Shown: positions 4,204 to 33,760 of the stretch, in pieces
Layout of the letters: every line of letters begins with the position of its first letter
Position numbering within the stretch: position 1 is the stretch's first letter
Origin: Trypanosoma brucei
Lineage: Eukaryota
Assembly (NCBI GenBank): GCA_000002445.1
Contig: CM000207.1
Coordinates: forward strand, 2,400,001-2,464,000
Direction of reading: 5' to 3'
DNA: 64,000 nt
Made by a program: the position numbers and the translations under genes
Notes under the pieces: model-generated
Seen by the model: the letters and a program-made list of their open reading frames with translations, nothing else
Database searches by the model: none
What the model was told of the DNA's origin: nothing

Positions 4204-5439
4204 ATGAGAACGATCCTCACCACATTAGGGTTATTGTTAGGCGTCACGCAGTACTCTGTGGGTGTCCCTGGAGCTGCCCTCAGCGTTGCAGCCGCTAGAA
4301 TAGTGTGCGAAGCGGCTATGGAACTTGGGAGAGCCGAATCTTATATCTCGATGAAACTGCGCGAAACGCGCGACTTGATCGAGTCCTTGAAAGTTGCTCG
4401 CAGACTCCTTGATGGCAAACTGCAGCGGGACAGACCCATCGGGGAGGAGTGCCTGAACGCAGTTAAGCTTATCGCTCACGCAGATGGTCTGGGTCGCAAA
4501 CTAGAGTCGCAATATTATGAGTTGGAGAGGATAGGGTTCAAAACCGCCTCCAAGTCCCGGCTGGCCTCCGGGAGACTCCACGAATTTATTTTAGTGTTTT
4601 CCCAGTGGCACGACGGCGAGGGCAGATGCATTGCCAACGGGGACGAGGAGGGCGACACACAGGGTGAAGTCACGCTGCGCCGTTGTATGAGCAGTTTGGT
4701 TAACGGAAGCTACGAAGACGGTGGCGGTGGCGTCCATCACAACTTCCCGCGTTATCTGAGGGAATCATTTCAGAATCTTTTTACGCTAGATGAGGATGTA
4801 TCGCTGAACAAGGATAATGGATGTCCTCTGACAAGGTGGAAAGTCATCCACAACGCAACGGCAAATGCCACGGGACGGAGTGGGGCCGCGGAAGATGTTA
4901 GGTGGGCAGGTGGGCTCCTTATTGTCACAGGTAACGGCCCCAGATGGATTTCAGACATTGAAGGGGTCCCGATGCTATCCAAAACGAAAACTAGCCTTGG
5001 AAAATTTGTGTCGATGTCCAGTAAAATTACCAGTGCCTTCAGTAATTTTATGGGAATAGTTTGGGCAGACAACCCGTGGTTGGTGAACAGCAGTGAAGTG
5101 GACAGTCTGATCGTGGGTGTTGACCTCTACATCTTTATGCACCCTTCCAGGGACTTCCAGATCAATGAAAGGGACCTAGACCGCCTGACAAAAACTTATT
5201 GTGGCGAACCCCTCCCCGCTCACGTGCGGCTCAGCGACAAAGTTGCTGACGGAAGGGACGGAAATAGTGACGTCTCGCCTCGCGGCCCTGTAGTCCCCGC
5301 AAACATATCTGAAACCAATACGATTTTCGGTAGCGATGATGACGATGAAGATTACAATGGTTTAACGGAGGTTAAGGCTGGGACCGAGCTTCTGTCGTTG
5401 TTGTTTCCCCTCGTGGCAATAAACCTTTTTCTTGTCTGA
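4204..5439 (+). CDS. GPI-anchored surface protein, ESAG6/PAG (transferrin-receptor-like, VSG N-domain-like) family candidate
   Basis: In-frame ATG (MRTILTTLGLLLGVTQYSVG = signal peptide) within the tracked ORF 4132-5439. The hydrophobic C-terminus ELLSLLFPLVAINLFLV is GPI-signal-like. The internal block ASGRLHEFILVFSQ..GRCI and the spaced Cys pattern resemble, from memory, the ESAG6 motif GRLEEWIFVFAQ. Several N-x-S/T sites. The family call is by recall, not search. Confidence 0.55.
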   Translation: MRTILTTLGLLLGVTQYSVGVPGAALSVAAARIVCEAAMELGRAESYISMKLRETRDLIESLKVARRLLDGKLQRDRPIGEECLNAVKLIAHADGLGRKLESQYYELERIGFKTASKSRLASGRLHEFILVFSQWHDGEGRCIANGDEEGDTQGEVTLRRCMSSLVNGSYEDGGGGVHHNFPRYLRESFQNLFTLDEDVSLNKDNGCPLTRWKVIHNATANATGRSGAAEDVRWAGGLLIVTGNGPRWISDIEGVPMLSKTKTSLGKFVSMSSKITSAFSNFMGIVWADNPWLVNSSEVDSLIVGVDLYIFMHPSRDFQINERDLDRLTKTYCGEPLPAHVRLSDKVADGRDGNSDVSPRGPVVPANISETNTIFGSDDDDEDYNGLTEVKAGTELLSLLFPLVAINLFLV

Positions 5440-5535
5440 TGTGAATGTAAAAGAAGTAACTGGCTCGTATATACATTGATCTCTTGTATTGGGTAGAGCT
5501 CGCCATTTTGCAGCCTATGCGTGCCACAACATCTG

Positions 5536-5919
5536 TCACCGTGTGTAACAAGTGAAGTTCCAGTTTACCTTGGTCATTGCATTTAACTTTCCTAAACCTC
5601 CATCCACATCGTGCACTCCGCCAAACTGTAGCGCGGGAAGTTGTTGAAAAATGTGAATCTCATTGCATCCTTTTGCAATCCGACTTTCTTGGTCCACGCA
5701 AGCATGGGTCAGAAAGCATTTTAGCCAACCTCGGAAGTCACAACCAAGGAACTCATAAAAAGAGCTCCTTCCTCCCTGGTACAGTGCGCTGTCAAAATAA
5801 AAGTCCTGTCCCCCTTTCCCTGACTGTTTTCTCCGCCGGTTAGGGCGGCTGCAGCGTTGGTAGAACCAGGTGGTATTTCGCGCTAAATCCTTATTCCAAA
5901 TGACGGTAGAACGCATCAA
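5536..5919 (-). CDS. possible short ORF or gene fragment (127 aa), unassigned
   Basis: ORF track only. No signal peptide or recognisable motif. It sits between the ESAG6-like gene and the array boundary. It could be a relic or pseudogene fragment. Confidence 0.2.
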   Translation of the reverse strand: MMRSTVIWNKDLARNTTWFYQRCSRPNRRRKQSGKGGQDFYFDSALYQGGRSSFYEFLGCDFRGWLKCFLTHACVDQESRIAKGCNEIHIFQQLPALQFGGVHDVDGGLGKLNAMTKVNWNFTCYTR

Positions 5920-8325
5920 ATGAGAGCAAACACAGAAAATTCGGTTATGATACTATTGTGATGCAGTCATTTCGGAAAGACGTGCAAAGGCGGTAGTGTT
6001 CAGCAGCGCAGCATTGTCGTCAAGGGAAACGGCGGGTAATGGGATGAGACAGTGGAGAACCCAGCACGCTGAAAGCTGAAGCACATTACAGACTCGTAGT
6101 GTTCAAGGAACGAACTGCACCTGCGTTAAGGTGCATGTCAACTTCAAAAATGCGAGGAATCAGCGCTGCTACTGAGAGGATTGTTGATTGCCACAGGAAG
6201 TGGCCCACCAACATGGTGCAGTGCGGTGCAATGAGGAGATCACTTGCTCACGCGACTCACAGAGGGAACTGAAGAGTATGCTACGGCCAAGTTAGAGCCA
6301 AGTGTACTGGACAGGATTATGAGGTGGGAACAGATAGGAACTAACAAGAAATCAAAACTACGTTTGTAAGATACACAAAGAAGAGGCGCACTGAAGATTA
6401 CTTCATGCCGCACTATTTTTGTGGCGGCCAAACTTAAAAGTGGAGAAGGGTAAAGGAAGTCAACGAGTGCCCGAAGCTTTTGTAATTATTTGGTTGAAGG
6501 AAGTTGCTCCAAAATGACGTGCGGAATGGCCGCGCAGCTAAGGCGGGAGAGAAAATTGTAGTAATTTAAAGCAAGGGTGAAGGAGCTTACCTGCTTATTT
6601 GCTTAAACGGCTGCACAGCAACCGTAGGGCAAAGAAATGGAATTCAGAAATACGGTAGAGGAAGATATGTGTACACGTGCAGCCGGTGTGGTTCCTTTGG
6701 GGTTCCGTTAGGTATTAAATGGGGGTAAAGCCATTGTCAATGACAGTGAGCACGAGGCCGAAGATAACGGCTGGTTCATCCGCTTACACAAGCAAATTTT
6801 TCAACAAACAGATACTTTTTTAACTTTCACTAACTGTAATTATATGCCTCTCAGTTAAACATAAGGCTAATAAATTCCAAAAGCGTTTCGATCGTAACGA
6901 TAGCGACATATGTCGCTAAGACACACATGAAAACATGCACAGTGGTCGTACCAAAGTATCCTCACCAGCGTAGCAACACAAAAAGTTAATGGAAATTTCC
7001 TATGGAAGAGAAACCATGCGATATTCCGGTAAGGCACTTGAAACCCTTCAGTAGCAGGCGATATCCACGGATCGTTAACAACATGGAATGAGAATCACAA
7101 CACACAAGGGGGAAAGGAATCGCAATTACTCTTTGAATATCAATACTTTTAGAGGGTCGAACTATCATCTGTCATCTGTCCCACGTGGCACTCTCACACA
7201 CCACATCAAGGGTGATGGGAGAAATTTTTTGTGGGAGCATACGATGGCCGATGAGTTGGTGAGAGATCAATTATGTTTGCAACACTGCCGTTTTGGTTAT
7301 TTTCTACTTGAGCACCTTTGATACAGTGGGCCATATCAGGGTTGTGCAATAAATGCGTAAAGTTAGTGGAGAAAAGTCTAACACCCTCTGCACCGCATCC
7401 TTACCAACAGAAGGAATGGCAGCAGCTCACTTAGATAAATCACTTCCCCCTGACAAGAATAGTTTAACAGAGGGCAGGTGAAAGGCACAGTGTTCAGCCT
7501 TTTACTGTTAAAAGCTGCAGTTACCTCCCTTCATTTTCTTACCAAACATCCCAAGACACAGCTTAAAGCATGGATTCTTTGTGGAAGACTTGACAGTGAG
7601 GAGAGGGAACGTGGATGGCTTTTCAGAAGGAACTGAATGTTATAGCTGTGATAGGAATCCGTATTTACTTCAGATAACTCGTCACGAAGAAAACAGGGTG
7701 TGAGGTGTTGGGAGGACATTTGGGGTCACGGTAATGCGGAAACGCGGCGACACCCACTCCATGTTGAATTTATATCCACACCGTTAATGTACTGGCAAAT
7801 CGGATATCCGCAGCGCCTTCTTACCCATAGAGTGCAAAGTGAAGAATACAAACTGACATTGACACTCTTCATTACTTCCAACATGTATTACACACGCGTT
7901 ACTCGGATGTAAGATATCGTGTGATTACAGGAGTTATTTCAAATATCAAGAGAGCTATGGAGAGTAATGGTTTCCTGATCTTTTTTCACCCATTCTGCCA
8001 TTTCATATCATCTCTCCCATGAAATTTCGATGATATGGGGAAACAATGTGTGGTGGAGCGTATATGTAAAAAGAAGACCTGAGGGCACTTTCACCCTGGG
8101 CACCTTGTCACACGAAATAGGAGCTATGGAAGACTTTCTCACTGAGGGTTGAGCCCCTTCCACACTATTTCATGGGATTCGTGCGAAGGGAAAACAGAAA
8201 AATTATGTTTTAGCAGTAGTCATGAAGAGTTTAATTTTGTGTGAAGTAATAACCCTGAGAACACTGAAACACTTCCATGAGATGTGTGGAAGAATGTCAA
8301 AATGTCAAGAAAGCTCAAAATACTT

Positions 8326-8355
8326 CACTTTTTGGTTCTTTTTTGATTTTGCTAG
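8326..8355 (+). promoter_or_regulatory. polyY tract + AG (8354-8355): predicted SL trans-splice acceptor for array gene 1, 5'UTR ~16 nt
   Basis: cttcactttttggttcttttttgattttgctAGagg, 17 nt before ATG 8372. It is conserved in every unit. Confidence 0.5.
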
Positions 8356-8371
8356 AGGACAAGGGTGAAAC

Positions 8372-9799
8372 ATGCAAGGCACTATGTACTGGGTTGTATT
8401 TTTAGTGGCGGTACTACAGGGTATTCATTTAGTGTCGGGCCAGGAGGAGATATTGAATGAACAAGAGTTTGAAGCGTTGTGTCGAATGATAAATTGGGCA
8501 GAAAGGGGACTGAAGCACATAAAAGTAACAAAACGAGTTACCCAAGAAGCTCTGAAAATAGGCGTAAGATATCTTGAAGTGGCCGGTGAGGAAAATGCTG
8601 CTGAACTCGCTGAGGCACAGGACTATTCTTGTACGAAGAGAATGGAGGATCGGAAAAGGAATTGTGGGCTGTACAAAACATTTTGGGAAGAGGCGCAGAG
8701 AGTATTGAACAAAGGGGTTGACAGCGGAGAAAGACCTGAGCGAAAAAAAAACGGCTTGCGGGAGCACAGTGCAGAGATTAGAAAAAAGGCAATGGAAGTG
8801 GCAGATATATATCACGAAATCGAAGCGAAGAGTCCATCTGGACAAGTAGAAAAGATTGAAGAACAGCTCAATAAAGCTCTTTATGGAAGGACACACACTG
8901 CTGAAGAGATAAGGGAAAGAGAAGAGCGAAGCAGGGTGTGCGGGAAAACATTACCAAATCCACCTAATAGAGAAGACCAATCACTAGCCGTGGATTTGCT
9001 GTGCTTGTGTGCAATGCACGGCTCTTGGAACGGCAGGGAGATATGCTGCGCAGACTGCACCACAGGAAGAAATAGCGAGGAGTGGAATCCAGAATCAAAC
9101 AGCGCGCACCGCTGGGAATTTCTGAAACAGAAGTGTGCGGGAGTCATTCCAAGCTATGGTAGCACGGGGGAAAGACTGCGTGATGCAAAACAAAATTTTA
9201 TGGATGCAGTAACGAAAATAACTACAAGGAGGGGGGAGCAGTTGTCCAAACTAGGAGAAAAGCAAAACAACAACGTAAAAGACTGCGGCGCGGACACAAG
9301 CAAGAGCCAAGGAATATGCATGCTGTACGGAGCAGTTGACGGAGTGAACCTGCCCTGGATGAAAACTTTGGAAAGTGTCGAAGACAGGATAGGACTTCTG
9401 ATGCAAGAGAGCCAAGACAAGACATCAAAACTTGAGAGAATTAAAGAGCTAAGTCAAGAGATAGAAAGCTTAATCAAAGGTGATACGGGGCGAGGAAGAC
9501 AACAGGGAAGACAGAAACGGAGTGTGGATACCGAGAACAGTGTCCCAGAAACCCCAGCTGACCCGAGCGATCCAACACAGTCAACCACAGATACCAATAG
9601 AAAAAAGCAAGGTGAAAGGAAACCGATATCAACAGGTAACGGTGCATCCAAAAGCTACGGTGGAGATGAGGTTGATTCTTACGATTCCAAATGCGATGGA
9701 GAAAACTCGGCATGCTCAGATTCACCAGCAAAGCCAACAGTAAAAAGCAGCAAAAGTGCTATAAATTGTCCACTGGGATTAATTTTGCTTTTGGTATAA
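8372..9799 (+). CDS. array paralog 1: secreted, GPI-anchored variant surface glycoprotein-like protein (475 aa), family unassigned
   Basis: Signal peptide MQGTMYWVVFLVAVLQGIHLVSGQ. Ten-plus Cys, including the LLCLCAMH..CCADCTTG block. Conserved RQKR, then a T/P/S/D-rich tail, then KCDGENSACSDSP, then the hydrophobic end INCPLGLILLLV (GPI-signal-like). Stop taa at 9797-9799 verified. Confidence 0.8.
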   Translation: MQGTMYWVVFLVAVLQGIHLVSGQEEILNEQEFEALCRMINWAERGLKHIKVTKRVTQEALKIGVRYLEVAGEENAAELAEAQDYSCTKRMEDRKRNCGLYKTFWEEAQRVLNKGVDSGERPERKKNGLREHSAEIRKKAMEVADIYHEIEAKSPSGQVEKIEEQLNKALYGRTHTAEEIREREERSRVCGKTLPNPPNREDQSLAVDLLCLCAMHGSWNGREICCADCTTGRNSEEWNPESNSAHRWEFLKQKCAGVIPSYGSTGERLRDAKQNFMDAVTKITTRRGEQLSKLGEKQNNNVKDCGADTSKSQGICMLYGAVDGVNLPWMKTLESVEDRIGLLMQESQDKTSKLERIKELSQEIESLIKGDTGRGRQQGRQKRSVDTENSVPETPADPSDPTQSTTDTNRKKQGERKPISTGNGASKSYGGDEVDSYDSKCDGENSACSDSPAKPTVKSSKSAINCPLGLILLLV

Positions 9800-12700
9800 A
9801 CGAAAAGTTCCAACACAAGGTAAGGAAAAAGAGATGGAATTGGTTGTGTTTGCGGCATCTCAATATTCCACACGGAGTGGGATGGTGTGCATTTCAAAAC
9901 TTGTACAGGAGACACGTGATGCGTCAGAGCAATCGTGCTCAGCAGCACAGCCATCCAGGAAGCCTAAACGAAAGAGGGAAATGTTGGGAGGGTTTATGCT
10001 TCGTGATACTAGTAATGCGTGTTGTTGAGAACCTTTTCATATTAAAAGGAACACTACAAAAACTGAAAGCATTTACGAATGATGGGAAAGCTCATAGAGG
10101 CTATAAACGGCTAAAATGTACCGGCCGTACTGAGTGGGTGGTGTGAAAATAAAAAGGGATATGTTGTAGAGAGTGTCAATACAGGAAGGCTACACAAATG
10201 GAAAGGAATAATAAATACAGAAAAAGGGACGTCATAATATTTTACTGAGCTCCATGCAGGAAGTGCAAGGGATATTTCCAATGGGGAAGTTGGGAAGGTT
10301 AAAAAAAAAGGCGAAAACATATGAGTGATAATGTAAATATAGTCTGATGGAAGGAAGTGTTGCTTTGGAAAAAGACAGACAAATAACTAAAAGAGGATTG
10401 ACTGGAGAAAATGATGCCAGGCGAAACACATAAAAAAATGGGTTCGGGAAGCATGGATATTTCGAACTTGGAACATAAAGACAAAAGAGCAGGAAAAGTT
10501 GTGGGAAATGGCATGTTATATATTTGCATCGTTATAGCAAAAAAAACTGTTTGGTGTGTCGAATGAGTGAAGGAACTGAGGCACTCAAGACCGCTGAATA
10601 AGAAAATGGAGAAGGAAAGCCACGGAAAGTAATGAGGGGATATCTTGAAAGCCGCGCACACAGACACGTACACTTGATAGCGGGGTGTGAAAAAGCAAGG
10701 AGTGGAACAAAAGCCTTCATCGCTATGATGGTTAAGAAATACGACACCACCACAATGCGCTGTATAATTCAAAGCAGACGTATTATTAAAGGGATCGGTA
10801 TTAGTGGAAATACCTGTGGTATTAACCTTTGCGGTGCTTGAAGTGATGGCATGAAAAAGATTAGAGATACCCTCTTCTGTGTTGTGTCGGATACATGGAA
10901 AAAGAAAGTGTGTGCTTGGCCTAAGGATGTAATGTGCTAAACCATAAGGCAGTAATAAAATACCTCAAAGCAATTCTATCGCCAAAAGGAATCGATGATG
11001 CTGTGGTTCAGACGAGAAATATCACACTACAGAATCCGACATTGCATGGGACGCAACTATGTGTCAACGCGGCGGTGATATAAGCTATCAAAGCAAAAAA
11101 TGATGCAATTATGGGGATTTATCATGCAGCAGCGTTGTCTACTATGGAAAATGCAGTAACCACTGAAAAGGAGGAAACATGCTTCAAGGAGCAAAAAGTA
11201 GCAGTGATTGCTGTAACAACAAGATTGTGGTTGTAAATAAAAAAAAAGAAAAGGAAGCGAAACTACGACCCAAGGATATTTAGAGTAGTATCGAAACTGC
11301 CTAAACATCACTAATGAATGCATATTTACCAAATGCGAATATATATGTATATGTGAATATATACGTACATCAATATTCTACAAAAATAGTGCTTTGCAGC
11401 GTGTGAGACTTTCAAAACATTTTTTGTGGAACACTTAAGCATAATTGTTGTTAATGGAAAATTGATCTATGGATACCTTCTTTTTGCTACATGTATTTTG
11501 AATTTGTTTGAGAGGAAAATGGTAACATCTCTGAGGTAAACTCTGGGACAATATAAAAGTGCTGGAGAAAATTTCTTGGTTTGACAGTAGCAATATCATG
11601 AACTAAAGAAGTGATTAAAAGATCTGTAACACGGGAGTATGTGCTTTTGCCATTGTACGATTTTCTTGATATATGCATTGAAGTGATTGATTGAATAGGG
11701 GTGCAAGTCTCATGAAACATGCTCTTCATTCAACCAAGGCTTTTTAGGAATATGCAGCAAAAGTCGAAAAATGACTGACTTGACAACCAAAATGGCGTCC
11801 CTATTCTATTAGTGAAAATTCGAATGAAACAGCACATAATGGAACTACATGAAAATTCAAAGGAAATGTGATATCAAATTCCTAACCCGCTGTATCAAAT
11901 TTCTCACACACCTTTCATAAAAGTATTTTTACATACATGTTTGAATTGAAAACACTCGACAAAATAATTTATGTGATCTGCGTATGAAATGTGTGATGAA
12001 TTCTGCCCAATCGTGCTAATCTCTCTATTATTGTTAAACCTCACCTTACCATTTGTTTCAGTAAAGGCAAGAAAGCAATATTAAATGATGAAATACTGTT
12101 AAACGGTGAAGTTACAAAGGAATATCTTTTCCGCAACAGAGAGTAACTATCTGAGAGGAGTTTAATGAACCGTGTACAATGATAGTGTCAGCACACTAAG
12201 TCTTGGAACAGCATAAACAGACTAGGATAACCAAAGGGGAAGAAGTGACACCTGGTGCTATGCAGTAACTAGCTTCAGAGGCAAAAAAAAGGCTGCTCAA
12301 TCCTATGGAAGCAATGTAACCTCACAGCCGTAGCAGTAGCGTGAATAAGAAAGGAAATGTGAACTTAGAAAAAACATATTGAACTCAAAGTGAAAAAGCA
12401 GAAGCAGTCAACCGCATAGAGGTATCAAAGGCATAACGTAGTTTGTTGGAAGGGGCGCCGAGCAAAATCAAGTTTTAGGCAGGTGATCCGGTATGGATGT
12501 ATCACACTGCACATGGATGCCACAAACCAAGAGACTTTGAATAGATGAAAGGAAAGATGAGAGACTTCGCGTCTATCAGGCGTGCTTGAGTTAGGGGCTG
12601 TAGTGGAAAGCAAACACAAACTGCTTACCCGAAGAGGGACAGTAACATGAACAATCCGAAATGGGTTTCAAACTATCTGGCACAATATCATTTTGACTGG

Positions 12701-15700
12701 GTCTGAGAGAGAGAGCTCTTTGGCCAGAGACAAACACGCGCGTTACTATAACCTTACAAATGACTCGAATACAGATATCAAATGCAATATTCTAAACGAA
12801 TAAAAACAAGGCTCAAGAGGCAACAATGCGGAAGATTCCGTTGAGTTACTTTACGTTAGCGTGAGGGTAGGAAAGAAAATGAAGAGATTTTGTGAATCTG
12901 GAAAAGGAAATGTGAGAACGCAACCCTACAACAGCTTTTAAAATATCCCATGGACTAAAGCGTTGAATAGAATTGACGGGAAAATGAGCAACCTGACTGT
13001 TAGCAAAGACAAGGGAAACTATGGCAAAGCTAACCTAGTTAAGCTGTGGCATCGCCAATTTAATTAAAACAAGCCAGAGTGAAGAGAGGATGCCATTCAG
13101 AGTTATAAGAAAGTAAAGCCATGAAAGTATAATTGGCACGATTACTTTGTTAAATTACGATACAAATACGAGTAAAACACAAATAATAATTATGGGAGCA
13201 AGCCAGGAGTTACCTGTGAAGGTGAAATTACTGCTGATTATAATAGTGCGGGTGTCTCTCGAATGAAACGCGAAAACCGTCGGCACAGTACAGCGTCCAC
13301 GCACTCAAACTGTGAAAGAGGATGTCAGTGGGTCAACGGTGAGATTGTGAGGCCACATCGCAAGCCAGTTATCTAAAACAGTGTGGGATTTGTTCAAACA
13401 TTACCCAGATTATATTTGTTTCTGTTTGTAAACGTGTGATTAGGCACTAAACTTCAATTCTAGCAGTGTTTGAATCTGTAGTACAATTAATATTTACCCC
13501 TTTCGTTTGAAAGTTAGTATAACTCTACGGTTTTGTCGGTCATTCAACGTAGTCTTGAAAGGGCCCAAAAGCACAAATACGTGACTTCTTAACATTTCAT
13601 CAGAGATGCACTACACCACACGGGTGAGCACATTGCCGTAACTAGGGGGTAGGTTTACTTTTTTGACACAGCTTCAAAAAGGTAGAACCTCGAATATGAT
13701 GCAAGTGGACCTCAGGTGGGGACTATCTGGCGCAAGAAAACGCTAGCAGAACTCGGGTCTCTCCCTCGCTTGAGGTAAAAGTTGTGTTGCATTGCGGGCT
13801 TCGGTGACGATTGCTCACTCCTTATTCAGATTTTTGAGGTTACCAAGCATGTAAAGCTAAGGGAGTGCAGTTCTTTCTCTGTAGTTGTTGGGTGAGCGGT
13901 TATGTAAATGTGTATATCTTCACATTTTTATATTTAAATGTTGGCTTTTACGAATTTTTTTGTTTGCAATGGGTTGAAATTACACGGCAACGACGTGGTT
14001 CAAGGTGTGAATTTTACTGATTTAGTTTTTGACGCCATCTCAGTTAGTGAAAGGATACGATGGCGATCCGCAAAGGGGAGGAAAAGGGCTTCCAAATTGC
14101 AGAGACGTACCAAAAATTGACAGGAATTTAGGTTGCTCAAAGGAAAATAATTATAGATATTAAGCGGCAAGAAACTTTGTGCTGGAGAGGCTTCTGGGGT
14201 TGGATTCTGTTTGACAGAAACTGCACGCCATGGCTGATAAGTGAGCTGCTTCCCATGAGGCATAGACGGGTGAATAATGCTTCCCTCAGTTTTTTGAGTG
14301 GGAATTCGTCGCTGTAAAAGATTCACCTGGTGTGAAAAGAATTGATAGAGCGTATCCGAACATTTTAATTACTCCAATCTAAGGAACAAGAAGTGTGAAA
14401 CATCTGGTGAGGGTAGAACGTCTTGTTACCTTAGCTCCCTTGGGCGGAACACAGGTGTAGGGTCGTGTAAAAAAGGGACGAGAGGTGTGTCTTCCTATTG
14501 AAGTTGGAGGTCTCTAGCTGAAAAAAAAAAGCCACTGACTCTAGTGACACGAATAGTCCAGACAATATCCCTAGGCGCGCGCACCTCACAGGCCGGCAGA
14601 ATAGTAAAACTCAATTTTCACTACAATCCAGTTACCAAACTGTACATTTAATCTTACTCTTCCCACTGTAAAAACATATAAGTGTTATTCAACTCGGGTG
14701 CTGAATCCATACCAAAGCACATAGAGGTAACAAATAAAAGTCGCTATTTCTGAAAACTAATTCACACTTGCCTGCGAATGCACACCTTTCCTTTAACATT
14801 CGTAAGACAGTATAGGGTCCTACTGAAGTCCTGGTTTACACAAGATATTATATACGATTGGTCACGCAGTCACCTCTGCTGCTTTCCGGACAATAAAGTG
14901 ACTAACTGCGAAGCATGGCTCTCAATGGGAGAGATTTTCTAAGCGGGTTAAAGAGCCATACTATGGAGACTCATACATGTGTATATTATTGTTGGGGTGA
15001 TTCACCAGCCCTTTTTACAAAATGTATAATATCCTCTTGCATTTGGCAGTGAAGCATAAAAGCGTGCTGCTGTTGTACTGAATATATCCCCTTTCCTTTG
15101 CGGTACCCTCCTTTCTCTTTATAAATAATGAGCCTGGTGTGAATTAGAAGAGTGTGCGAATTTATCCAAAATAGAGTGGGTGTAATGGGAAGACACATCA
15201 TGTGGAGGACACTCCGTATGCTAGCAGCTGATGCTTACGGTGGAAGTGGAAGAAGCATTCAGTATCCGAGGCGTAGTGCCACCTTGCCATAAATTGGCTG
15301 TCGGAGTTGACAAGAGATCACTGAAGTGGCAACCCTCCAAGGGCCACTTAGTGAAGATGTGCGCCATTATGTCGCTAAGACACACATGAAAACATGCACA
15401 GTGGTCGTACCAAAGTATCCTCACCAGCGTAGCAACACAAAAAGTTAATGGAAATTTCCTATGGAAGAGAAACCATGCGATATTCCGGTAAGGCACTTGA
15501 AACCCTTCAGTAGCAGGCGATATCCAAGGATTGTTAACAACATGGAATGAGAATCACAACACACAAGGGGGAAAGGAATCGCAATTACTCTTTGAATATC
15601 AATACTTTTAGAGGGTCGAACTATCATCTGTCATCTGTCCCACGTGGCACTCTCACACACCACATCAAGGGTGATGGGAGAAATTTTTTGTGGGAGCATA

Positions 15701-16784
15701 CGATGGCCGATGAGTTGGTGAGAGATCAATTATGTTTGCAACACTGCCGTTTTGGTTATTTTCTACTTGAGCACTTTTGATACAGTGGGCCATATCAGGG
15801 TTGTGCAATAAATGCGTAAAGTTAGTGGAGAAAAGTCTAACACCCTCTGCACCGCATCCTTACCAACAGAAGGAATGGCAGCAGCTCACTTAGATAAATC
15901 ACTTCCCCCTGACAAGAATAGTTTAACAGAGGGCAGGTGAAAGGCACAGTGTTCAGCCTTTTACTGTTAAAAGCTGCAGTTACCTCCCTTCATTTTCTTA
16001 CCAAACATCCCAAGACACAGCTTAAAGCATGGATTCTTTGTGGAAGACTTGACAGTGAGGAGAGGGAACGTGGATGGCTTTTCAGAAGGAACTGAATGTT
16101 ATAGCTGTGATAGGAATCCGTATTTACTTCAGATAACTCGTCACGAAGAAAACAGGGTGTGAGGTGTTGGGAGGACATTTGGGGTCACGGTAATGCGGAA
16201 ACGCGGCGACACCCACTCCATGTTGAATTTATATCCACACCGTTAATGTACTGGCAAATCGGATATCCGCAGCGCCTTCTTACCCATAGAGTGCAAAGTG
16301 AAGAATACAAACTGACATTGACACTCTTCATTACTTCCAACATGTATTACACACGCGTTACTCGGATGTAAGATATCGTGTGATTACAGGAGTTATTTCA
16401 AATATCAAGAGAGCTATGGAGAGTAATGGTTTCCTGATCTTTTTTCACCCATTCTGCCATTTCATATCATCTCTCCCATGAAATTTCGATGATATGGGGA
16501 AACAATGTGTGGTGGAGCGTATATGTAAAAAGAAGACCTGAGGGCACTTTCACCCTGGACACCTTGTCACACGAAATAGGAGCTATGGAAGACTTTCTCA
16601 CTGAGGGTTGAGCCCCTTCCACACTATTTCATGGGATTCGTGCGAAGGGAAAACAGAAAAATTATGTTTTAGCAGTAGTCATGAAGAGTTTAATTTTGTG
16701 TGAAGTAATAACCCTGAGAACACTGAAACACTTCCATGAGATGTGTAGAAGAATGTCAAAATGTCAAGAAAGCTCAAAATACTT

Positions 16785-16814
16785 CACTTTTTGGTTCTTT
16801 TTTGATTTTTCTAG
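16785..16814 (+). promoter_or_regulatory. polyY tract + AG (16813-16814): predicted SL acceptor for array gene 2
   Basis: Same conserved element as at 8326-8355. Confidence 0.5.
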
Positions 16815-16830
16815 AGGACAAGGGTGAAAC

Positions 16831-18255
16831 ATGCAAGGCACTATGTACTGGGTTGTATTTTTAGTGGCGGCACTACAGGGTATTCATTTAGTGTTGGGCC
16901 AGGAGGAGATATTGAATGAACAAGAGTTTGAAGCGTTGTGTCGAATGATAAATTGGGCAGAAAGGGGACTGAAGCACATAAATTTGGCACGACAGGTTAC
17001 TGAAGAAGCTCTGAAAATAGGCGTAAGATATCTTGAAGTGGCCGGCGAGGAGGAGGTTACAGAGCTTACCGAACTGCAGGAGAAGGCGTGCATGAGCAAC
17101 AAGAAGACAAGTCACGAAAAGAATTGTGGACTGTACAAAACATTTTGGGAAGAGTCACAGGAAGCATTGAAGAGGACTGCCAGATCGCAAGCGCCTCATC
17201 GAGGAAGGAACAGTTTGCAATATCATACAGCGGAAGGAATTAAAATCAAAGTAATGGAAGTGGCGGATACGTATCACGAGGTCAAAAAAGAAATCTTGAA
17301 ACTTAGAACGGATAACATGGAGGAGCAACTCAATCAAGCTCTTTATGGAGTAGGACATTTTACTGGAGAGGTAAAAGGAGGGGATTCGGACCGAAGCAGA
17401 GTGTGTGGACAAAACCTGGGCAACCGCGACGCCACTGGAGGTTGGTCACTAGCCGTGGATTTGTTGTGCTTGTGTGCGAGGCACATATCCTGGAGCAGCG
17501 TGAAGAGTGTATGCTGTGAGGAGTGCGGTACGGGAGAGAACAGCAACACATGGAACCCAGCATTAGACGGAGCACTACACTGGGAATTTCTAAAAGAGAA
17601 TTGTCCAGGTGATAATACAAATCACCATACAGAGGGCGAACAGCTGAAAAGCGCCAAAAAGAATTTTATGGCAAAAGTGTCTAAAATAGCCACTATCCCA
17701 TATAGAACTATGTACAAGCTTGGAGACAGTAAAAATATACAAACAAAGCAATGCGGGGCTAACATAGGCACTGGCCAGGGAATATGCGTGTACTACGGAT
17801 CTGATAATGGAGCGAATCTGCACTGGATGCAAGCGTTGGAAAGGGTTGAAAATGATGTTGAAGTTCTTCTGCAAGACAGTAAATATAAGTCGACTAAGCT
17901 AAAGAGGATTAAAGAGCTAAGTCAAGAGATTCAGAACCTAATCGAAGGTGGCACGCCGCGGGGAAGACAGAAACGGAGTGTGGATACCGAGAACAGTGTC
18001 CCAGAAACCCCAGCTGACCCGAGCGATCCAACACAGTCAACCACACATACCAATGAAAAAAAGCGAATTGTAAGAAAACCGATATCAACAGGTAACAATG
18101 CATCCAAAAGCTACGGTGGAGATGAGGTTGATTCTTACGATTCCAAATGCGATGGAGAAAACTCGGCATGCTCAGATTCACCAGCAAAGCCAACAGTAAA
18201 AAGCAGCAAAAGTGCTATAAATTGTCCACTGGGATTAATTTTGCTTTTGGTATAA
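16831..18255 (+). CDS. array paralog 2 (474 aa), same family
   Basis: Signal peptide MQGTMYWVVFLVAALQGIHLVLGQ. The C-terminal ~110 aa are near-identical to paralog 3. The internal block RVCGQNL..ATGGWSLAVDLLCLCA is shared with paralog 4. Confidence 0.8.
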   Translation: MQGTMYWVVFLVAALQGIHLVLGQEEILNEQEFEALCRMINWAERGLKHINLARQVTEEALKIGVRYLEVAGEEEVTELTELQEKACMSNKKTSHEKNCGLYKTFWEESQEALKRTARSQAPHRGRNSLQYHTAEGIKIKVMEVADTYHEVKKEILKLRTDNMEEQLNQALYGVGHFTGEVKGGDSDRSRVCGQNLGNRDATGGWSLAVDLLCLCARHISWSSVKSVCCEECGTGENSNTWNPALDGALHWEFLKENCPGDNTNHHTEGEQLKSAKKNFMAKVSKIATIPYRTMYKLGDSKNIQTKQCGANIGTGQGICVYYGSDNGANLHWMQALERVENDVEVLLQDSKYKSTKLKRIKELSQEIQNLIEGGTPRGRQKRSVDTENSVPETPADPSDPTQSTTHTNEKKRIVRKPISTGNNASKSYGGDEVDSYDSKCDGENSACSDSPAKPTVKSSKSAINCPLGLILLLV

Positions 18256-21200
18256 ACGAAAAGTTCCAACACAAGGTAAGGAAAAAGAGATGGAATTGGT
18301 TGTGTTTGCGGCATCTCAATATTCCACACGGAGTGGGATGGTGTGCATTTCAAAACTTGTACAGGAGACATGTGATGCGTCAGAGCAATCGTGCTCAGCA
18401 GCACAGCCATCCAGGAAGCCTAAACGAAAGAGGGAAATGTTGGGAGGGTTTATGCTTCGTGATACTAGTAATGCGTGTTGTTGAGAACCTTTTCATATTA
18501 AAAGGAACACTACAAAAACTGAAAGCATTTACGAATGATGGGAAAGCTCATAGAGGCTATAAACGGCTAAAATGTACCGGCCGTACTGAGTGGGTGGTGT
18601 GAAAATAAAAAAGTATATGTTGTAGAGAATGTCGATACCGGAAGGCTACAAGAATGGAAGGAATAATAAATACAGAAAAAGAGACGCCATACTTTTCACT
18701 GAGCTATCTACAGGACATGGAAGGGATATTTCCAATGGGGAAGTTGGGAAGGTTAAAAAAAAAGGCGAAAACATATGAGTGATAATGTAAATATAGTCTG
18801 ATGGAAGGAAGTGTTGCTTTGGAAAAAGACAGACAAATAACTAAAAGAGGATTGACTGGAGAAAATGATGCCAGGCGAAACACATAAAAAAATGGGTTCG
18901 GGAAGCATGGATATTTCGAACTTGGAACATAAAGACAAAAGAGCAGGAAAAGTTGTGGGAAATGGCATGTTATATATTTGCATCGTTATAGCAAAAAAAA
19001 CTGTTTGGTGTGTCGAATGAGTGAAGGAACTGAGGCACTCAAGACCGCTGAATAAGAAAATGGAGAAGGAAAGCCACGGAAAGTAATGAGGGGATATCTT
19101 GAAAGCCGCGCACACAGACACGTACACTTGATAGCGGGGTGTGAAAAAGCAAGGAGTGGAACAAAAGCCTTCATCGCTATGATGGTTAAGAAATACGACA
19201 CCACCACAATGCGCTGTATAATTCAAAGCAGACGTATTATTAAAGGGATCGGTATTAGTGGAAATACCTGTGGTATTAACCTTTGCGGTGCTTGAAGTGA
19301 TGGCATGAAAAAGATTAGAGATACCCTCTTCTGTGTTGTGTCGGATACATGGAAAAAGAAAGTGTGTGCTTGGCCTAAGGATGTAATGTGCTAAACCATA
19401 AGGCAGTAATAAAATACCTCAAAGCAATTCTATCGCCAAAAGGAATCGATGATGCTGTGGTTCAGACGAGAAATATCACACTACAGAATCCGACATTGCA
19501 TGGGACGCAACTATGTGTCAACGCGGCGGTGATATAAGCTATCAAAGCAAAAAATGATGCAATTATGGGGATTTATCATGCAGCAGCGTTGTCTACCATG
19601 GAAAATGCAGTAACCACTGAAAAGGAGGAAACATGCTTCAAGGAGCAAAAAGTAGCAGTGATTGCTGTAACAACAAGATTGTGGTTGTAAATAAAAAAAA
19701 AGAAAAGGAAGCGAAACTACGACCCAAGGATATTTAGAGTAGTATCGAAACTGCCTAAACATCACTAATGAATGCATATTTACCAAATGCGAATATATAT
19801 GTATATGTGAATATATACGTACATCAATATTCTACAAAAATAGTGCTTTGCAGCGTGTGAGACTTTCAAAACATTTTTTGTGGAACACTTAAGCATAATT
19901 GTTGTTAATGGAAAACTGATCTATGGATACCTTCTTTTTGCTACATGTATTTTGAATTTGTTTGAGAGGAAAATGGTAACATCTCTGAGGTAAACTCTGG
20001 GACAATATAAAAGTGCTAAAGGAAATTTCTGGGTTTGACAGTAGCAATATCATGAACTAAAGAAGTGATTAAAAGATCTGTAACACGGGAGTATGTGCTT
20101 TTGCCATTGTACGATTTTCTTGATATATGCATTGAAGTGATTGATTGAATAGGGGTGCAAGTCTCATGAAACATGCTCTTCATTCAACCAAGGCTTTGTA
20201 AGAATATGCAGCAAAAGTCGAAAAATGACTGACTTGACAACCAAAATGGCGTCCCTATTCTATTAGTGAAAATTCGAATGAAACAGCACATAATGGAACT
20301 ACATGAAAATTCAAAGGAAATGTGATATCAAATTCCTAACCCGCTGTATCAAATTTCTCACACACCTTTCATAAAAGTATTTTTACATACATGTTTGAAT
20401 TGAAAACACTCGACAAAATAATTTATGTGATATGCATGTGAAATGTGTGATGAATTCTGCCCAATCGTGCTAATCTCTCTATTATTGTTAAACCTCACCT
20501 TACCATTTGTTTCAGTAAAGGCAAGAAAGCAATATTAAATGATGAAATACTGTTAAACGGTGAAGTTACAAAGGAATATCTTTTCCGCAACAGAGAGTAG
20601 CTATCTGAGAGGAGTTTAATGAACCGCGTACAATGATAGTGTCAGCACACTAAGTCTTGGAACAGCATAAACAGACTAGGATAACCAAAGGGGAAGAAGT
20701 GACACCTGGTGCTATGCAGTAACTAGCTTCAGAGGCAAAAAAAAGGCTGCTCAATCCTATGGAAGCAATGTAACCTCACAGCCGTAGCAGTAGCGTGAAT
20801 AAGAAAGGAAATGTGAACTTAGAAAAAACATATTGAACTCAAAGTGAACAAACAGAAGCAGTCAACCGCATAGAGGTATCAAAGGCATAACGTAGTTTGT
20901 TGGAAGGGGCGCCGAGCAAAATCAAGTTTTAGGCAGGTGATCCGGTATGGATGTATCACACTGCACATGGATGCCACAAACCAAGAGACTTTGAATAGAT
21001 GAAAGGAAAGATGAGAGACTTCGCGTCTATCAGGCGTGCTTGAGTTAGGGGCTGTAGTGGAAAGCAAACACAAACTGCTTACCCGAAGAGGGACAGTAGC
21101 ATGTACAATCCGAAATGGGTTTCAAACTATCTGGCACAATTCCATTTTGACTGGGTGTGAGAGAGAGTTCTTGGGACAGAGACAAACACGCGCGTTACTA

Positions 21201-24200
21201 TAACCTTACAAATGACTCGAATACAGATATCAAATGCAATATTCTAAATGAACAATAAAAACAAGGCTCAAGAGGCAACAATGCATAAGATTCCGTTGAG
21301 TTACTTTACGTTAGCGTGAGGGTAGGAAAGAAAATGAAGAGATTTTGTGAATCTGGAAAAGGAAATGTGAGAACGCAACCCTACAACAGCTTTTAAAATA
21401 TCCCATGGACTAAAGCGTTGAATAGAATTGACGGGAAAATGAGCAACCTGACAGTGAGCACAAACAAGGGAAACTATGGCAAAGCTTACATAGTTAAGCT
21501 GTGGCATGTCAATTTAATTAAAACGTGCCAGAGTGAAGAGAGGATGCCATTCAGAGTTATAAGAAAGCAAAGCCATGAAAGTGTAATTGACACGATTACT
21601 TTGTTACAATCCGATACAAATACGAGTAAAACACAAATAATAATTATGGGAGCAAGCCAGGAGTTACCTGTGAAGGTGAAATTACTGCTGATTATAATAG
21701 TGCGAGTGGCTCTTGACACAAATGCGAAAACCGTAAGCACAGTTCAGCGTCCACGAGCTCAAACTGTGAAACAGGATGAAAGCTGGTCAACGGTGAGATT
21801 GTGAGGCCACATCGCGAGTCAGTCATCTAAAACAGTGTGAATTTCGTTCAAACATTACCCAGGTTATATTTGTTTCTGTTTGTAAACGTGTGATTAGGCA
21901 CTAAACTTCAATTCTAGCAGTGTTTGAATCTGTAGTACAATTAATATTTACCCCTTTCGTTTGAAAGTTAGTATAACTCTACGGTTTTGTCGGTCATTCA
22001 ACGTAGTCTTGAAAGGGCCCAAAAGCACAAATACGTGACTTCTTAACATTTCATCAGAGATGCACTACACCACACGGGTGAGCACATTGCCGTAACTAGG
22101 GGGTAGGTTTACTTTTTTGACACAGCTTCAAAAAGGTAGAACCTCGAATATGATGCAAGTGGACCTCAGGTGGGGACTATCTGGCGCAAGAAAACGCTAG
22201 CAGAACTCGGGTCTCTCCCTCGCTTGAGGTAAAAGTTGTGTTGCATTGCGGGCTTCGGTGACGATTGCTCACTCCTTATTCAGATTTTTGAGGTTACCAA
22301 GCATGTAAAGCTAAGGGAGTGCAGTTCTTTCTCTGTAGTTGTTGGGTGAGCGGTTATGTAAATGTGTATATCTTCACATTTTTATATTTCAATGTTGGCT
22401 TTTACGAATTTTTTTGTTTGCAATGGGTTGAAATTACACGGCAACGACGTGGTTCAAGGTGTGAATTTTACTGATTTAGTTTTTGACGCCATCTCAGTTA
22501 GTGAAAGGATACGATGGCGATCCGCAAAGGGAAGGAAAGAGACTTCCGGATTGCAGAGACGTACCAAAAATTGACAGGAATTTAGGTTGCTCAAAGGAAA
22601 ATAATTATAGATACTAAGCGGTAAGAAACTTTGTGCTGGAGAGGCTTCTGGGGTTGGATTCTGTTTGACAGAAACTGCACGCCATGACTGATAAGTGAGC
22701 TGCTTCCCCTGAGGCATAGACGTGTGAAAAATGCTTCCCTCAGTTTTTTGAGTGGGAATTCGTCGCTGTAAAAGATTCACCTGGTGTGAAAAGAATTGAT
22801 AGAGCGTATCCGAACATTTTAACTATTCCAATCTAAGGAACAAGGAGTGTGAAACATCTGGTGAGGGTAGAACGTCTTGTTACCTTAGCTCCCTTGGGCG
22901 GAACACAGGTGTAGGGTCGTGTAAAAAAGGGACGAGAGGTGTGTCTTCCTATTGAAGTTGGAGGTCTCTAGCTGAAAAAAAAAAGCCACTGACTCTAGTG
23001 ACATGAATAGTCCAGACAATATCCCTAGGCACGTGCACCTCACAGGCCGGCAGAATAGTAAAACTTAATTTTCACTACAATCCAGTTACCAAACTGTACA
23101 TTTAATCTTACTCTTCCCACTGTAGAAACATATAAGTGTTATTCAACTCGGGTGCTGAATCCATACCAATTCACATAGAGGTAACAAATAAAAGCCGCTA
23201 TTTCTGAAAACTAATTCACACTTGCCTGCGAATGCACACCTCTCCTTTAACATTCGTAAGACAGTATAGGGTCCTACTGAAGTCCTGGTTTACACAAGAT
23301 ATTATATACGATTGGTCACGCAGTCACCTCTGCTGTTTTCCGGACAATAAAGTGACTAACTGCGAAGCATGGCTCTCAATGGGAGAGATTTTCTAAGCGG
23401 GTTAAAGAGCCACACTATGGAGACTCATACGTGTGTATATTATTGTTGGGGTGATTCACCAGCCTTTTTTACAAAATGTATAATATCCTCTTGCATTTGG
23501 CAGTGAAGCATAAAAGCGTGCTGCTGTTGTACTGAATATATCCCCTTTCCTTTGCGGTACCCTCCTTTCTCTTTATAAATAATGAGCCTGGTGTGAATTA
23601 GAAGAGTGTGCGAATTTATCCAAAATAGAGTGGGTGTAATGGGAAGACACATCACGTAGAGGACACTCCGTATGCTAGCAGCTGATGCTTACGGTGGAAG
23701 TGGAAGAAGCATTCAGTATCCGAGGCGTAGTGCCACCTTGCCATAAATTGGCTGTCGGAGTTGACAAGAGATCACTGAAGTGGCAACCCTCCAAGGGCCA
23801 CTTAGTGAAGATGTGCGCCATAATGTCGCTAAGACACACATGAAAACATGCACAGTGGTCGTGCCAAAGTATCCTCACCACAGTAGCAACACAAAAAGTA
23901 AGGGTGAGTTCCTATGGAAGAGAAACCATGCGATATTCCGGTAAGGCACTTGAAACCCTTCAGTAGCAGGCGATATCCAAGGATTGTTAACAACATGGAA
24001 TGAGAATCACAACACACAAGGGGGAAAGGAATCGCAATTACTCTTTGAATATCAATACTTTTAGAGGGTCGAACTATCATCTGTCATCTGTCCCACGTGG
24101 CACTCTCACACACCACATCAAGGGTGATGGGAGAAATTTTTTGTGGGAGCATACGATGGCCGATGAGTTGGTGAGAGATCAATTATGTTTGCAACACTGC

Positions 24201-25267: not shown

Positions 25268-25283
25268 AGGACAAGGGTGAAAC

Positions 25284-33735: not shown

Positions 33736-33760
33736 ACAAGGGTGAAACATCCAAGGCACT

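Follow-up and report, generated by a model that had tools for sequence, protein, structure and literature searches.

The conserved non-coding spacer of the Trypanosoma brucei VR20-VR24 array resolves into gene flanks and a 3-kb linker, alike between units through recent copying and recombination

Tandem gene arrays with long intergenic spacers pose a simple question: what, if anything, is being conserved in the DNA between the genes? We addressed it in a 64,000-nucleotide stretch of T. brucei TREU927 chromosome 9 (2,400,001-2,464,000; hereafter the window), in which a sequence-only reading had singled out an array where most of each unit appeared to be conserved and non-coding. Positions 6903-46181 of the window correspond to the annotated VR20-VR24 tandem array of VSG-related, b-type genes. 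Adding 2,400,000 to a window position yields the v4 coordinate, with VR20 (Tb09.244.2330) starting at 2408372 and VR21 (Tb09.244.2310) at 2416831 in supplementary file 8 of Jensen 2009; the remaining genes, VR22-VR24, are Tb09.244.2280, Tb09.244.2240 and Tb09.244.2200. The locus is therefore a tandem duplication that has already been catalogued, and VR20-VR24 are known genes, the set being attributed to Marcello & Barry 2007 in PMC2771046 and PMC2854126. It is itself one of the T. brucei VR gene clusters as defined in PMC2771046 (b-type VSG domain, chromosome-internal position, strand switch and no 70-bp repeats), with low, bloodstream-form-enriched expression.

As can be seen in Table 1, the array displays a clear bipartite organization. 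Self-BLASTN and a repeat finder both detect it, with a start-to-start spacing of 8453-8484 bp, and it comprises four full units followed by a fifth that ends after 5.42 kb. Each full unit, with a period of ~8.46 kb, consists of X (5.42 kb, the gene and its own flanks) and Y (a 3.04-kb linker). X is single copy at the T. b. gambiense locus. Y sits exclusively between X copies: it is missing after the last unit and from the gambiense locus, whose layout is L-X-R, and a search of the rest of the window and of the orthologous loci L001 and L002 found no further copy. It is present in T. equiperdum, where a piece of scaffold L003 (1673-4953) is 92.6-95% identical to it, and the X-Y-X topology is thus shared with T. 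equiperdum and not with the gambiense assembly. The ~7 kb of non-coding DNA previously proposed for each 8.46-kb unit is borne out by self-BLASTN, the ORFs and an empty six-frame Pfam search, since each gene is flanked by 1,469 bp upstream and 5,561 bp downstream. The spacer (9800-15368 and its copies, plus the next 5' flank) consists of 2.5 kb of X3', 3.04 kb of Y and the 1.47-kb X5' of the next gene, and no internal repeats were found within it. GC skew changes sign at ~46-47 kb, and because the minus-strand RHS3 gene converges on the array, the end of the array is a convergent strand switch.

Table 1. Features of the VR20-VR24 array (window positions)
Feature	Positions	Strand	Evidence or accession
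Whole tandem array, X(YX)4	6903-46181 (v4 2,406,903-2,446,181)	+	Self-BLASTN, repeat families, Jensen 2009 supplementary file 8
X5', 1.47-kb upstream flank	6903-8371; copies 15361-16830, 23815-25283, 32278-33760, 40760-42232	+	Pyrimidine-tract scan
VR20 CDS, 475 aa	8372-9799	+	EAN77376; Pfam VSG_B; 100% match to TREU927 protein
VR21-VR24 CDS, paralogues of VR20	16831-18255, 25284-26708, 33761-35185, 42233-43654	+	EAN77377/79/82/85
X3', 2.5-kb proximal downstream flank	9800-12322; copies 18256-20776, 26709-29232, 35186-37714, 43655-46181	+	Composition, tract scan
Y, 3,038-bp inter-unit linker	12323-15360; copies 20777-23814, 29233-32277, 37715-40759	+	Junction sequences
121-aa ORF in Y, "hypothetical protein, conserved"	21439-21804; copies 29896-30261, 38378-38743	+	EAN77378
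215-217-aa ORF in X3', units 3-4	27244-27891 (EAN77380), 35726-36373 (EAN77383)	-	HMMER: locus copies only
Shorter minus-strand variants in X3'	Unit 5: 154-156 aa, 44376-44840 (EAN77386); units 1-2: 76/157 aa	-	ORF list
R, unique sequence beyond the last unit, with RHS3 gene	46182-49359; RHS3 47587-49359	-	EAN77387; Pfam RHSP, RHS_N, DUF7578

The coding part of the unit is straightforward. Every unit (n=5) has one plus-strand ORF of 473-475 aa, whose product matches Pfam VSG_B over residues 9-358 (E = 5e-84), that is, a b-type VSG N-terminal domain, and all five proteins are annotated as "VSG, atypical" in TREU927. A canonical silent VSG cassette carries 70-bp repeats upstream and a conserved 16-mer, TGATATATTTTAACAC, in its 3'UTR. 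In contrast, the VR20-VR24 array has neither: no 70-bp repeat or (TAA)n was found inside the units, TAA-run matches lying only outside the array, and the 16-mer is absent from the whole window at up to two mismatches. Moreover, while neighbours in silent VSG arrays are unrelated, here they are copies of one unit.

As for the spacer, we found no protein encoded in it. No Pfam domain was detected in six frames over 9800-16830 at E <= 1, with the same stop-to-X translations recovering the VSG_B and RHS domains at full score as a positive control. In a catalogue of ATG-started ORFs on the five-unit alignment, the VSG_B gene is the only ORF of at least 100 aa common to all units, in line with the earlier remark that no spacer ORF is preserved throughout, and two 52-62-aa minus-strand ORFs just 5' of the gene are the sole others present in five of five. 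No intact conserved protein emerged, the annotated spacer ORFs being confined to the locus and broken in some units. The minus-strand ORFs in X3' differ in length between units 1-2, units 3-4 and unit 5, a subgroup pattern that had been noticed before. An exhaustive HMMER search of 1.84 billion representatives with the 215-aa version matched copies from the VR20-VR24 locus alone, and in several units the gambiense counterpart is disrupted, whether by a stop or by a frameshift. This ORF is spurious and lies on the pyrimidine-rich antisense strand.

The best candidate for a real small protein gene is the plus-strand ORF in Y. It was initially reported as a 128-aa ORF (21418, 29875 and 38357) interrupted in unit 1, which we confirm; it begins at a TTG, has 121 aa from the first ATG and is identical in its three copies (units 2-4), while in unit 1 a 1-nt indel causes a frameshift and stops. 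The T. equiperdum counterpart is intact at 121 aa and differs from unit 2 by six synonymous and six non-synonymous changes (pN/pS 0.28, P ~0.03-0.12, on just 12 differences), a pattern that gives a weak hint of coding constraint, and its probe set is bloodstream-enriched on microarrays. However, with so few differences, 121 codons would likely stay open by chance, and substitutions between units 1 and 2 are distributed 13/6/13 over the three codon positions (P = 0.22). The ORF has no Pfam domain and is no more conserved than the rest of Y, all of which is absent from gambiense. We conclude that it is probably not a gene, and a functional small protein encoded here seems very unlikely.

A second possibility, put forward from the sequence in a DIRE/ingi-like form, is that the spacer is a decayed retroelement captured in the unit; we considered ingi, RIME, DIRE, SLACS and VIPER relics. 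The adjoining RHS gene does belong to a family associated with retroelement insertion, and the sense strand of the spacer is A- and purine-rich like that of retroposons, but the likeness to ingi/RIME/DIRE relics is limited to these two features. In the sequence examined, the spacer shows no domain remnants (no reverse transcriptase, endonuclease or other Pfam domain in any of the six frames, with a valid control), and the junctions of Y exhibit neither an A-rich tail nor a target-site duplication. It has no similarity to proteins encoded in the window, and further copies are absent from both the window and the orthologous loci. A retroelement origin is thus extremely improbable. Known RNAs fared no better: no Rfam family reached gathering score in the whole window, or E <= 1 over 6903-16830, and a tRNA search found none. 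The spacer therefore encodes no protein, recognizable retroelement or known RNA family.

If the spacer encodes nothing recognizable, why are its copies so alike? The five-unit alignment gives a flank identity of 85-100%, which fits the description of the spacer as conserved in the narrow sense of similarity between units, yet the word claims too much and is no indication of constraint. The flanks consist of two haplotypes ~5-15% apart, with near-identity among the units that carry the same version. Variable sites are nearly all biallelic and fall into block-wise partitions, {1,2,3|4,5}, {1,2|3,4,5} and {1|2,3,4}, which change along the unit, and over tracts of 0.3-1.35 kb adjacent units do not differ at a single position. 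No ultra-conserved island is present, and invariant runs do not exceed 56 nt. In comparisons beyond TREU927, X5' is 89-90.6% identical to its T. b. gambiense and T. equiperdum counterparts, X3' is 90.7-92.5% identical to the single-copy gambiense locus, and ~260 bp of X3', corresponding to 10342-10610, are missing in T. equiperdum. Conservation of the spacer is not evidence of constraint because the X flanks, at 90-92.5% identity to gambiense, fall below the published genome-wide mean for non-coding sequence (95.4%; 99.2% for coding, PMC2854126). Since the non-coding flank was duplicated together with the gene, its similarity reflects recent copying and recombination, not a hidden function. 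Our data thus show that purifying selection does not account for the similarity between units, which goes back to two older flank versions reshuffled by recent events of unequal crossing-over and gene conversion.

The genes tell a different story. Between units, the coding cores of the N-terminal domain have a dS of 0.6-1.07, as opposed to a flank divergence of 0-0.15, and cores and flanks therefore have separate histories. The earlier suggestion that the spacer supplies long homology for recombination agrees well with the identical tracts and the block-wise haplotypes. Kilobase-scale identical flanks may act as passive homology through which the array could expand, contract and homogenize its flanks, with the N-terminal-domain cores remaining highly different.

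Whether the spacer also contributes to gene expression was approached through processing signals and published microarrays. In X5', a cluster of sense-strand pyrimidine-rich tracts at 7518-8350 is followed by an AG at 8354, 18 nt 5' of the ATG, and is a predicted trans-splice acceptor region. X3' is 59% purine on its sense strand, and no sense pyrimidine-rich tract occurs in 9800-12038, the first appearing at 12039; functional tracts as short as 7 nt have been reported, so that the threshold (at least 16 pyrimidines in 20) is the stricter one and weaker processing sites in X3' are possible. X3' is most likely a long 3'UTR because polypyrimidine tracts, which direct trans-splicing and the polyadenylation coupled to it, are missing from its sense strand. 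From what is known of long trypanosome 3'UTRs, 2.2 kb devoid of such tracts would be expected to remain on the upstream mRNA, and the next processing signals would be carried by Y, in which each of five pyrimidine-rich tracts has an AG after it, and by X5'. The candidate 3'UTR, predicted from sequence to be at least ~2.2 kb, would lie in the upper tail of a distribution with a median of 388 nt and a range to ~6 kb (Kolev et al. 2010; PMC2936537 for the ~6 kb).

Microarray data are consistent with this picture. In the oligo-dT-primed arrays of Jensen 2009, a paper that does not state strand specificity, the bloodstream-to-procyclic ratio is 3.8-6.6 for Tb09.244.2290, Tb09.244.2230 and Tb09.244.2190, whose signals reach 3164-5942; for the VR genes the ratio is 3.1-7.6 and the signal 881-3974. 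From chromosome order and GenBank accession order, we infer that these three identifiers are spacer ORFs. If this placement holds, spacer RNA would be present and co-regulated with the VR genes, and the spacer may be transcribed together with them by RNA polymerase II. Signals and arrays together make a long 3'UTR or a co-transcribed non-coding RNA plausible. The spacer (9800-15368 and its copies) is the portion of the repeat unit that does not code, and we consider it likely to be a co-transcribed flank that in part forms a long 3'UTR and doubles as recombination homology.

A stronger claim would be that the spacer, X3' or Y especially, is under selection as functional non-coding DNA, either as a long 3'UTR regulating VR mRNAs in the bloodstream form or by giving rise to a long non-coding RNA. 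This would fit the poly(A)-primed, VR-like bloodstream enrichment of the X3' and Y probes, the tract-free 2.2 kb past the stop codon, the AG-associated tracts of Y and the fact that TREU927 and T. equiperdum have both kept Y between units. Nevertheless, we regard it as unlikely: the divergence of X flanks from gambiense exceeds that of average non-coding sequence, no conserved island is present and T. equiperdum has the 260-bp deletion, Y is missing at the gambiense locus and in the last unit, and Rfam is empty even at E <= 1. Moreover, transcription is the default inside a trypanosome polycistron and is no proof of function. Were it true, a regulatory UTR or long non-coding RNA would offer a way into how VR genes come to be expressed specifically in the bloodstream form. 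More speculative, and quite doubtful in our opinion, is a combined scheme in which X3' and Y form a stage-regulating long 3'UTR and/or a polyadenylated lncRNA in each unit, and the homogenized arms allow diverged N-terminal-domain "cassettes" to be kept or exchanged. Such cassettes, set between identical arms, would parallel VSG cassette switching, here at a chromosome-internal site and under Pol II transcription.

Spacer length, too, takes on a different meaning when set against the relevant gene family. The sequence-only reading called the spacer unusually large, which holds by the standard of housekeeping arrays but not by that of VSG genes: the Lister 427 assembly has 2,846 of them and 19.54 Mb of subtelomere, i.e., ~7 kb per VSG. 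The VR20-VR24 array shares this low density of ~7 kb per gene with subtelomeric silent VSG arrays, in which flanking homology serves gene conversion. The striking "conserved non-coding" signal arises as a side effect of a segmental duplication, young and recombining, in an annotated island of VR genes, and the spacer result, as found, is of limited importance. The useful outcome is that the unit separates cleanly into a gene with flanks of its own and a 3-kb linker, and the X-Y-X topology that T. equiperdum shares and the gambiense assembly does not. The published VR descriptions consulted here do not take the unit apart, and we add its X + Y composition, the mosaic of two flank haplotypes and the occurrence of Y in T. 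equiperdum. Near-identical non-coding flanks beside a coding core saturated at synonymous sites bear on how trypanosome surface-protein families diversify.

There is precedent for such a locus. In their account of segmental duplications, Jackson et al. 2010 mention one of an atypical VSG on chromosome 9 in T. b. brucei relative to gambiense, which we take to be the VR20-VR24 locus. The duplications in their Fig. 2 (chromosome 9, and also 3 and 6) combine, as here, identical parts of the unit with a strongly differing surface-protein gene, and in the example detailed there this gene is 51-59% identical at the nucleotide level and has one copy in gambiense, again as here. That example has three genes per unit, whereas the VR array has one gene and ~7 kb of geneless DNA.

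The five repeated ORFs (473-475 aa) each contain a full-length VSG_B domain (Pfam) and are identical to TREU927 proteins annotated as 'variant surface glycoprotein (VSG, atypical), putative' (EAN77376/77/79/82/85, from a source record of 3,057,547 bp). Since window positions 8372 and 16831, each increased by 2,400,000, are the chromosome 9 positions published for VR20 (Tb09.244.2330, at 2,408,372) and VR21 (Tb09.244.2310, at 2,416,831) by Jensen et al. 2009 (PMC2771046, supplementary tables), the array corresponds to VR20-VR24, VSG-related genes of an annotated locus that the literature already catalogues. The sign of the GC skew flips at 46-47 kb, and the array therefore ends at a convergent strand switch, a position that agrees with a published account in which VR genes are chromosome-internal, located in strand-switch regions and devoid of 70-bp repeats (PMC2771046). 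The tables of Jensen et al. (PMC2771046) also place ESAG5 (Tb09.244.2120) near this locus. Jackson et al. 2010 (PMC2854126) mention an atypical VSG that is segmentally duplicated in T. b. brucei and belongs to a VSG island of chromosome 9, which we take to be the VR20-VR24 locus.

Self-BLASTN and a repeat finder delimit a tandem array (v4 chromosome 9 coordinates 2,406,903-2,446,181) with a spacing of 8453-8484 bp, in which each unit comprises an upstream flank of 1,469 bp, a coding sequence of ~1,425 bp and a downstream flank of 5,561 bp, with flanks 85-100% identical between units. Besides the VR gene, no ORF of at least 100 aa is common to all units when ATG-started ORFs of at least 50 aa are mapped on the unit alignment. 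The large non-coding repeat unit noticed from the sequence alone is thus real, its array, flank lengths and lack of a common ORF all being reproduced. Its size, which had been called unusual, is large by comparison with housekeeping arrays but not within the VSG family, since the annotation of Lister 427 counts 2,846 VSGs against 19.54 Mb of subtelomere, which amounts to ~7 kb per gene.

In T. b. gambiense DAL972 the corresponding locus holds adenylate cyclase, the 435-aa gene that also precedes the array here, a single VR gene and an RHS gene; its alignment to the window consists of left flank (L), one copy of 6903-12322 and right flank (R). This single copy divides the unit into X, the gene with its own upstream (X5') and downstream (X3') flanks, and Y, a linker between X copies, so that the array reads X(YX)4. 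Either gambiense carries a single copy or its assembly is collapsed. No similarity to Y was found in the rest of the window, in the gambiense locus or in L002, a T. equiperdum locus. Y does occur in T. equiperdum, and is not specific to TREU927: a piece of scaffold L003 (CZPT02001593.1) matches X-end, Y and X-start at 92.6-95% identity, and the counterpart of the 121-aa ORF of Y in T. equiperdum OVI lies on this scaffold. L003 consists of pieces joined by 10-N gaps, which limits trust to the pieces and not their order, and a different T. equiperdum architecture (X-end, R, X-end, Y, X-start, L, X) was rejected because its joins are these scaffold gaps. The junctions that lie inside pieces are X-end to R, X-end to Y to X-start, and L to X-start, and the pieces carry a second VR gene with only 77% nucleotide identity to that of L002; the array topology is thus shared by T. 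equiperdum, whose VR copies number at least two and are diverged. This species lacks ~260 bp of X3' that gambiense and all five TREU927 units keep. This deletion overlaps the minus-strand ORF annotated as 'hypothetical conserved'. We rejected the possibility that the window is misassembled, given zero Ns, many structured substitutions between units and the same junctions in independent T. equiperdum pieces.

Features of the VR20-VR24 locus, with expression values from Jensen et al. (signal; bloodstream/procyclic ratio). Positions are in the window unless stated.
Feature	Position	Strand	Identifier	Remark
435-aa ORF, 5' of array	4132-5439	+	probably Tb09.244.2340	
Tandem array	6903-46181			
X	6903-12322			5.42 kb; gene with own flanks
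Y	12323-15360			3,038 bp; only between X copies
VR20-VR24 coding sequences			Tb09.244.2330,.2310,.2280,.2240,.2200 respectively	881-3974; 3.1-7.6
N-terminal-domain core	~8400-9500 and equivalents			
121-aa ORF in Y, units 2-4		+	EAN77378, 81, 84; probably Tb09.244.2290 (probe shared with Tb09.v1.0820,.0830)	'hypothetical protein, conserved'; 3164; 6.6
215-aa ORF in X3', units 3-4		-	EAN77380, 83	'hypothetical protein, conserved'
154-aa ORF, unit 5		-	EAN77386	'hypothetical protein, conserved'
X3' of unit 4, probable place of probe			Tb09.244.2230	4206; 3.8
X3' of unit 5, probable place of probe			Tb09.244.2190	5942; 4.0
Haplotype block, units 1, 2, 3 versus 4, 5	6903 to ~10150			
Haplotype block, units 1, 2 versus 3, 4, 5	~10400 to 12400			
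Y haplotype blocks	middle block 12650-13400			1, 2 versus 3, 4; then 1 versus 2, 3, 4 (middle); then 1, 2 versus 3, 4 again
Deletion in T. equiperdum	10342-10610; L002 10341-10478			~260 bp
L003 10-N gaps	L003 1663-1672, 4954-4963, 5658-5667, 5775-5784			
Array to RHS3	46182-47586			
RHS3	47587-49359	-	Tb09.244.2180	convergent gene after array
Low-G+C region	52000-57500			between RHS gene and next minus-strand ORFs
232-aa ORF	58718-59416	-		
RING-finger frame	61696-62055	-		120 codons
235-aa ORF	63279-63986	-		

Outside the coding core, nearly all variable columns of the flanks are biallelic and arranged in blocks, which reveals two flank haplotypes ~5-15% apart that have been shuffled by crossing-over or conversion. 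Carriers of one haplotype hardly differ within it, and neighbouring units are linked by perfectly identical tracts of 0.3-1.35 kb. When compared with gambiense, X5' is 89.9-90.6% and X3' 90.7-92.5% identical, against 99.2% for the upstream gene and 95.3% for the intergenic DNA upstream; genome-wide, PMC2854126 gives mean identities of 99.2% (coding) and 95.4% (non-coding). In a seven-sequence alignment, invariant columns (75-95%) are evenly spread and no invariant run exceeds 56 nt. The low flank identity across subspecies and the lack of an invariant island therefore indicate that the units resemble each other through recent copying and concerted evolution, not constraint. The spacer had been described as conserved, which holds between units but not across subspecies (89.9-92.5% versus gambiense). 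At the right edge of the array, RHS3 (88.1% identical to gambiense) and the stretch linking it to the array (85.4%) both show many indels and are unusually diverged, so that fast evolution extends beyond the VR genes to the entire strand-switch region.

The coding cores differ sharply from these flanks. The N-terminal-domain cores of the five copies share 55-80% nucleotide and 49-58% amino-acid identity; those of gambiense and T. equiperdum are 84% identical to each other and at most 67% identical to any TREU927 copy. Synonymous divergence (dS) in the core is 0.6-1.07, whereas the adjoining flanks differ by 0-0.15, and this mismatch implies that cores and flanks have distinct genealogies. Either old cores were protected during flank homogenization, or cores were imported by conversion between shared arms. 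The suggestion that the spacer supplies homology arms for gene conversion is thus supported by diverged cores lying between homogenized flanks. According to Jackson et al. (PMC2854126), other T. b. brucei segmental duplications show the same pattern of cores versus flanks. Given a dN/dS of 0.33-0.53, the VR genes look functional. Core motifs are shared in mosaic fashion between non-adjacent copies.

No intact conserved protein was found in the spacer: there is no all-unit ORF of at least 100 aa, and when 9800-16830 is translated in six frames with X in place of each stop, no Pfam family matches at E <= 1. The same translation of the VR and RHS regions recovered VSG_B (1.7e-83) and RHSP (3.2e-56), so the method works. 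TBLASTN of the window's sizeable proteins against two spacers gave nothing below E = 0.1, and the period-3 spectral signal was uninformative, as it did not tell known coding sequence and spacer apart. Composite protein queries, one joining open stretches of Y by X and another those of X3' and X5', had zero matches in a collection of 5.8 billion proteins, which does not count as a negative result because they missed the annotated 215-aa and 121-aa products present in that collection.

Several spacer ORFs, whose GenBank identifiers were assigned by exact look-up, are nevertheless annotated as proteins. Our ORF listing confirms that those on the minus strand vary between unit subgroups, as the sequence-only reading had stated. 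Their gambiense counterparts meet stops or frame changes in several TREU927 units, and have 61-80% amino-acid identity where the DNA is ~90% identical. An exhaustive HMMER search of 1.84 billion representatives with the 215-aa ORF returned three meaningful matches (itself, the unit 5 version and a 126-aa gambiense ORF) and a fourth, weak one (E = 2e-07), in which several short segments align to a 603-aa protein. The minus-strand X3' ORFs, which lie on the pyrimidine-rich antisense strand, are spurious. The plus-strand ORF first listed at 128 aa has a TTG start and 121 aa from its first ATG; it is identical in units 2-4 and, as had been noticed, interrupted in unit 1, where a 1-nt indel shifts the frame. 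Versus T. equiperdum it has 12 differences, 6 of them synonymous (P ~0.03-0.12), and substitutions between units 1 and 2 number 13, 6 and 13 at the three codon positions (P = 0.22). Conservation of this region is no better than that of the remaining Y, and a hint of constraint is seen in this spacer ORF only.

A retroelement relic, one origin proposed for the spacer, is not supported, with no Pfam family in six frames and neither an A-rich tail nor a target-site duplication at the ends of Y. The same is true of a known RNA family in the spacer: Rfam yielded none at gathering score in the window and none at E <= 1 in 6903-16830, and no tRNA was found. Neither direct nor inverted repeats of note occur inside the unit, and the VSG 3'UTR 16-mer and 70-bp-type repeats are absent.

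Published expression data bear on the remaining roles. Jensen et al. (PMC2771046) used oligo-dT-primed cDNA and probes on v4 annotated coding sequences, with strand specificity unstated, and report signals for the VR genes and for three genes (Tb09.244.2290,.2230 and.2190) that we infer to be spacer ORFs from chromosomal and accession order. Nilsson 2010 gives Tb09.244.2330,.2190 and.2180 only as 'up', the Kolev 2010 supplements (spliced-leader and poly(A)-site data) have no entry for genes of the VR20-VR24 locus, and the main text of the base J and H3.V termination papers does not name it. Sense-strand pyrimidine-rich tracts form a cluster at 7518-8350, whose last member is followed by an AG at 8354, 18 nt 5' of the ATG; there are none in 9800-12038 and five in 12039-15126, each with an AG after it (12060, 13773, 14453, 14681 and 15131), and X3' is 59% purine. 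T. brucei transcripts are polyadenylated at a median distance of 142 nt upstream of the following trans-splice site, and 3'UTR lengths reach ~6 kb (PMC2936537). In the simplest model, the VR mRNA would have a 3'UTR of at least ~2.2 kb spanning X3', and Y plus X5' would carry the next processing signals. A functional UTR or long non-coding RNA combined with cassette-like swapping of N-terminal domains seems improbable. The spacer is probably best read as a long 3'UTR or co-transcribed spacer that also provides passive recombination homology.

Several neighbouring features deserve mention. The low-G+C region beyond RHS3 (26-30% G+C) is dense in short simple repeats, namely (AAT)n, (TA)n and A and T runs, without a long-period satellite. 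Two minus-strand ORFs have no Pfam match, one of 232 aa rich in proline, threonine and alanine, and one of 235 aa with many N-x-S/T sites. Between them, an open frame absent from the list of ORFs of at least 110 aa encodes a C3HC4 RING finger (zf-C3HC4_3, E = 1.7e-09) and is a short gene or a fragment of one. Upstream of the array, the 435-aa ORF, which from gene order is probably the gene annotated as 'hypothetical, T. brucei specific', shows a weak A-type VSG match (Trypan_glycop, E = 9e-07), a signal-peptide-like N terminus and a hydrophobic C terminus. Unlike its VR neighbours, it is conserved, with 99.2% identity in gambiense and 99.5% in T. equiperdum.
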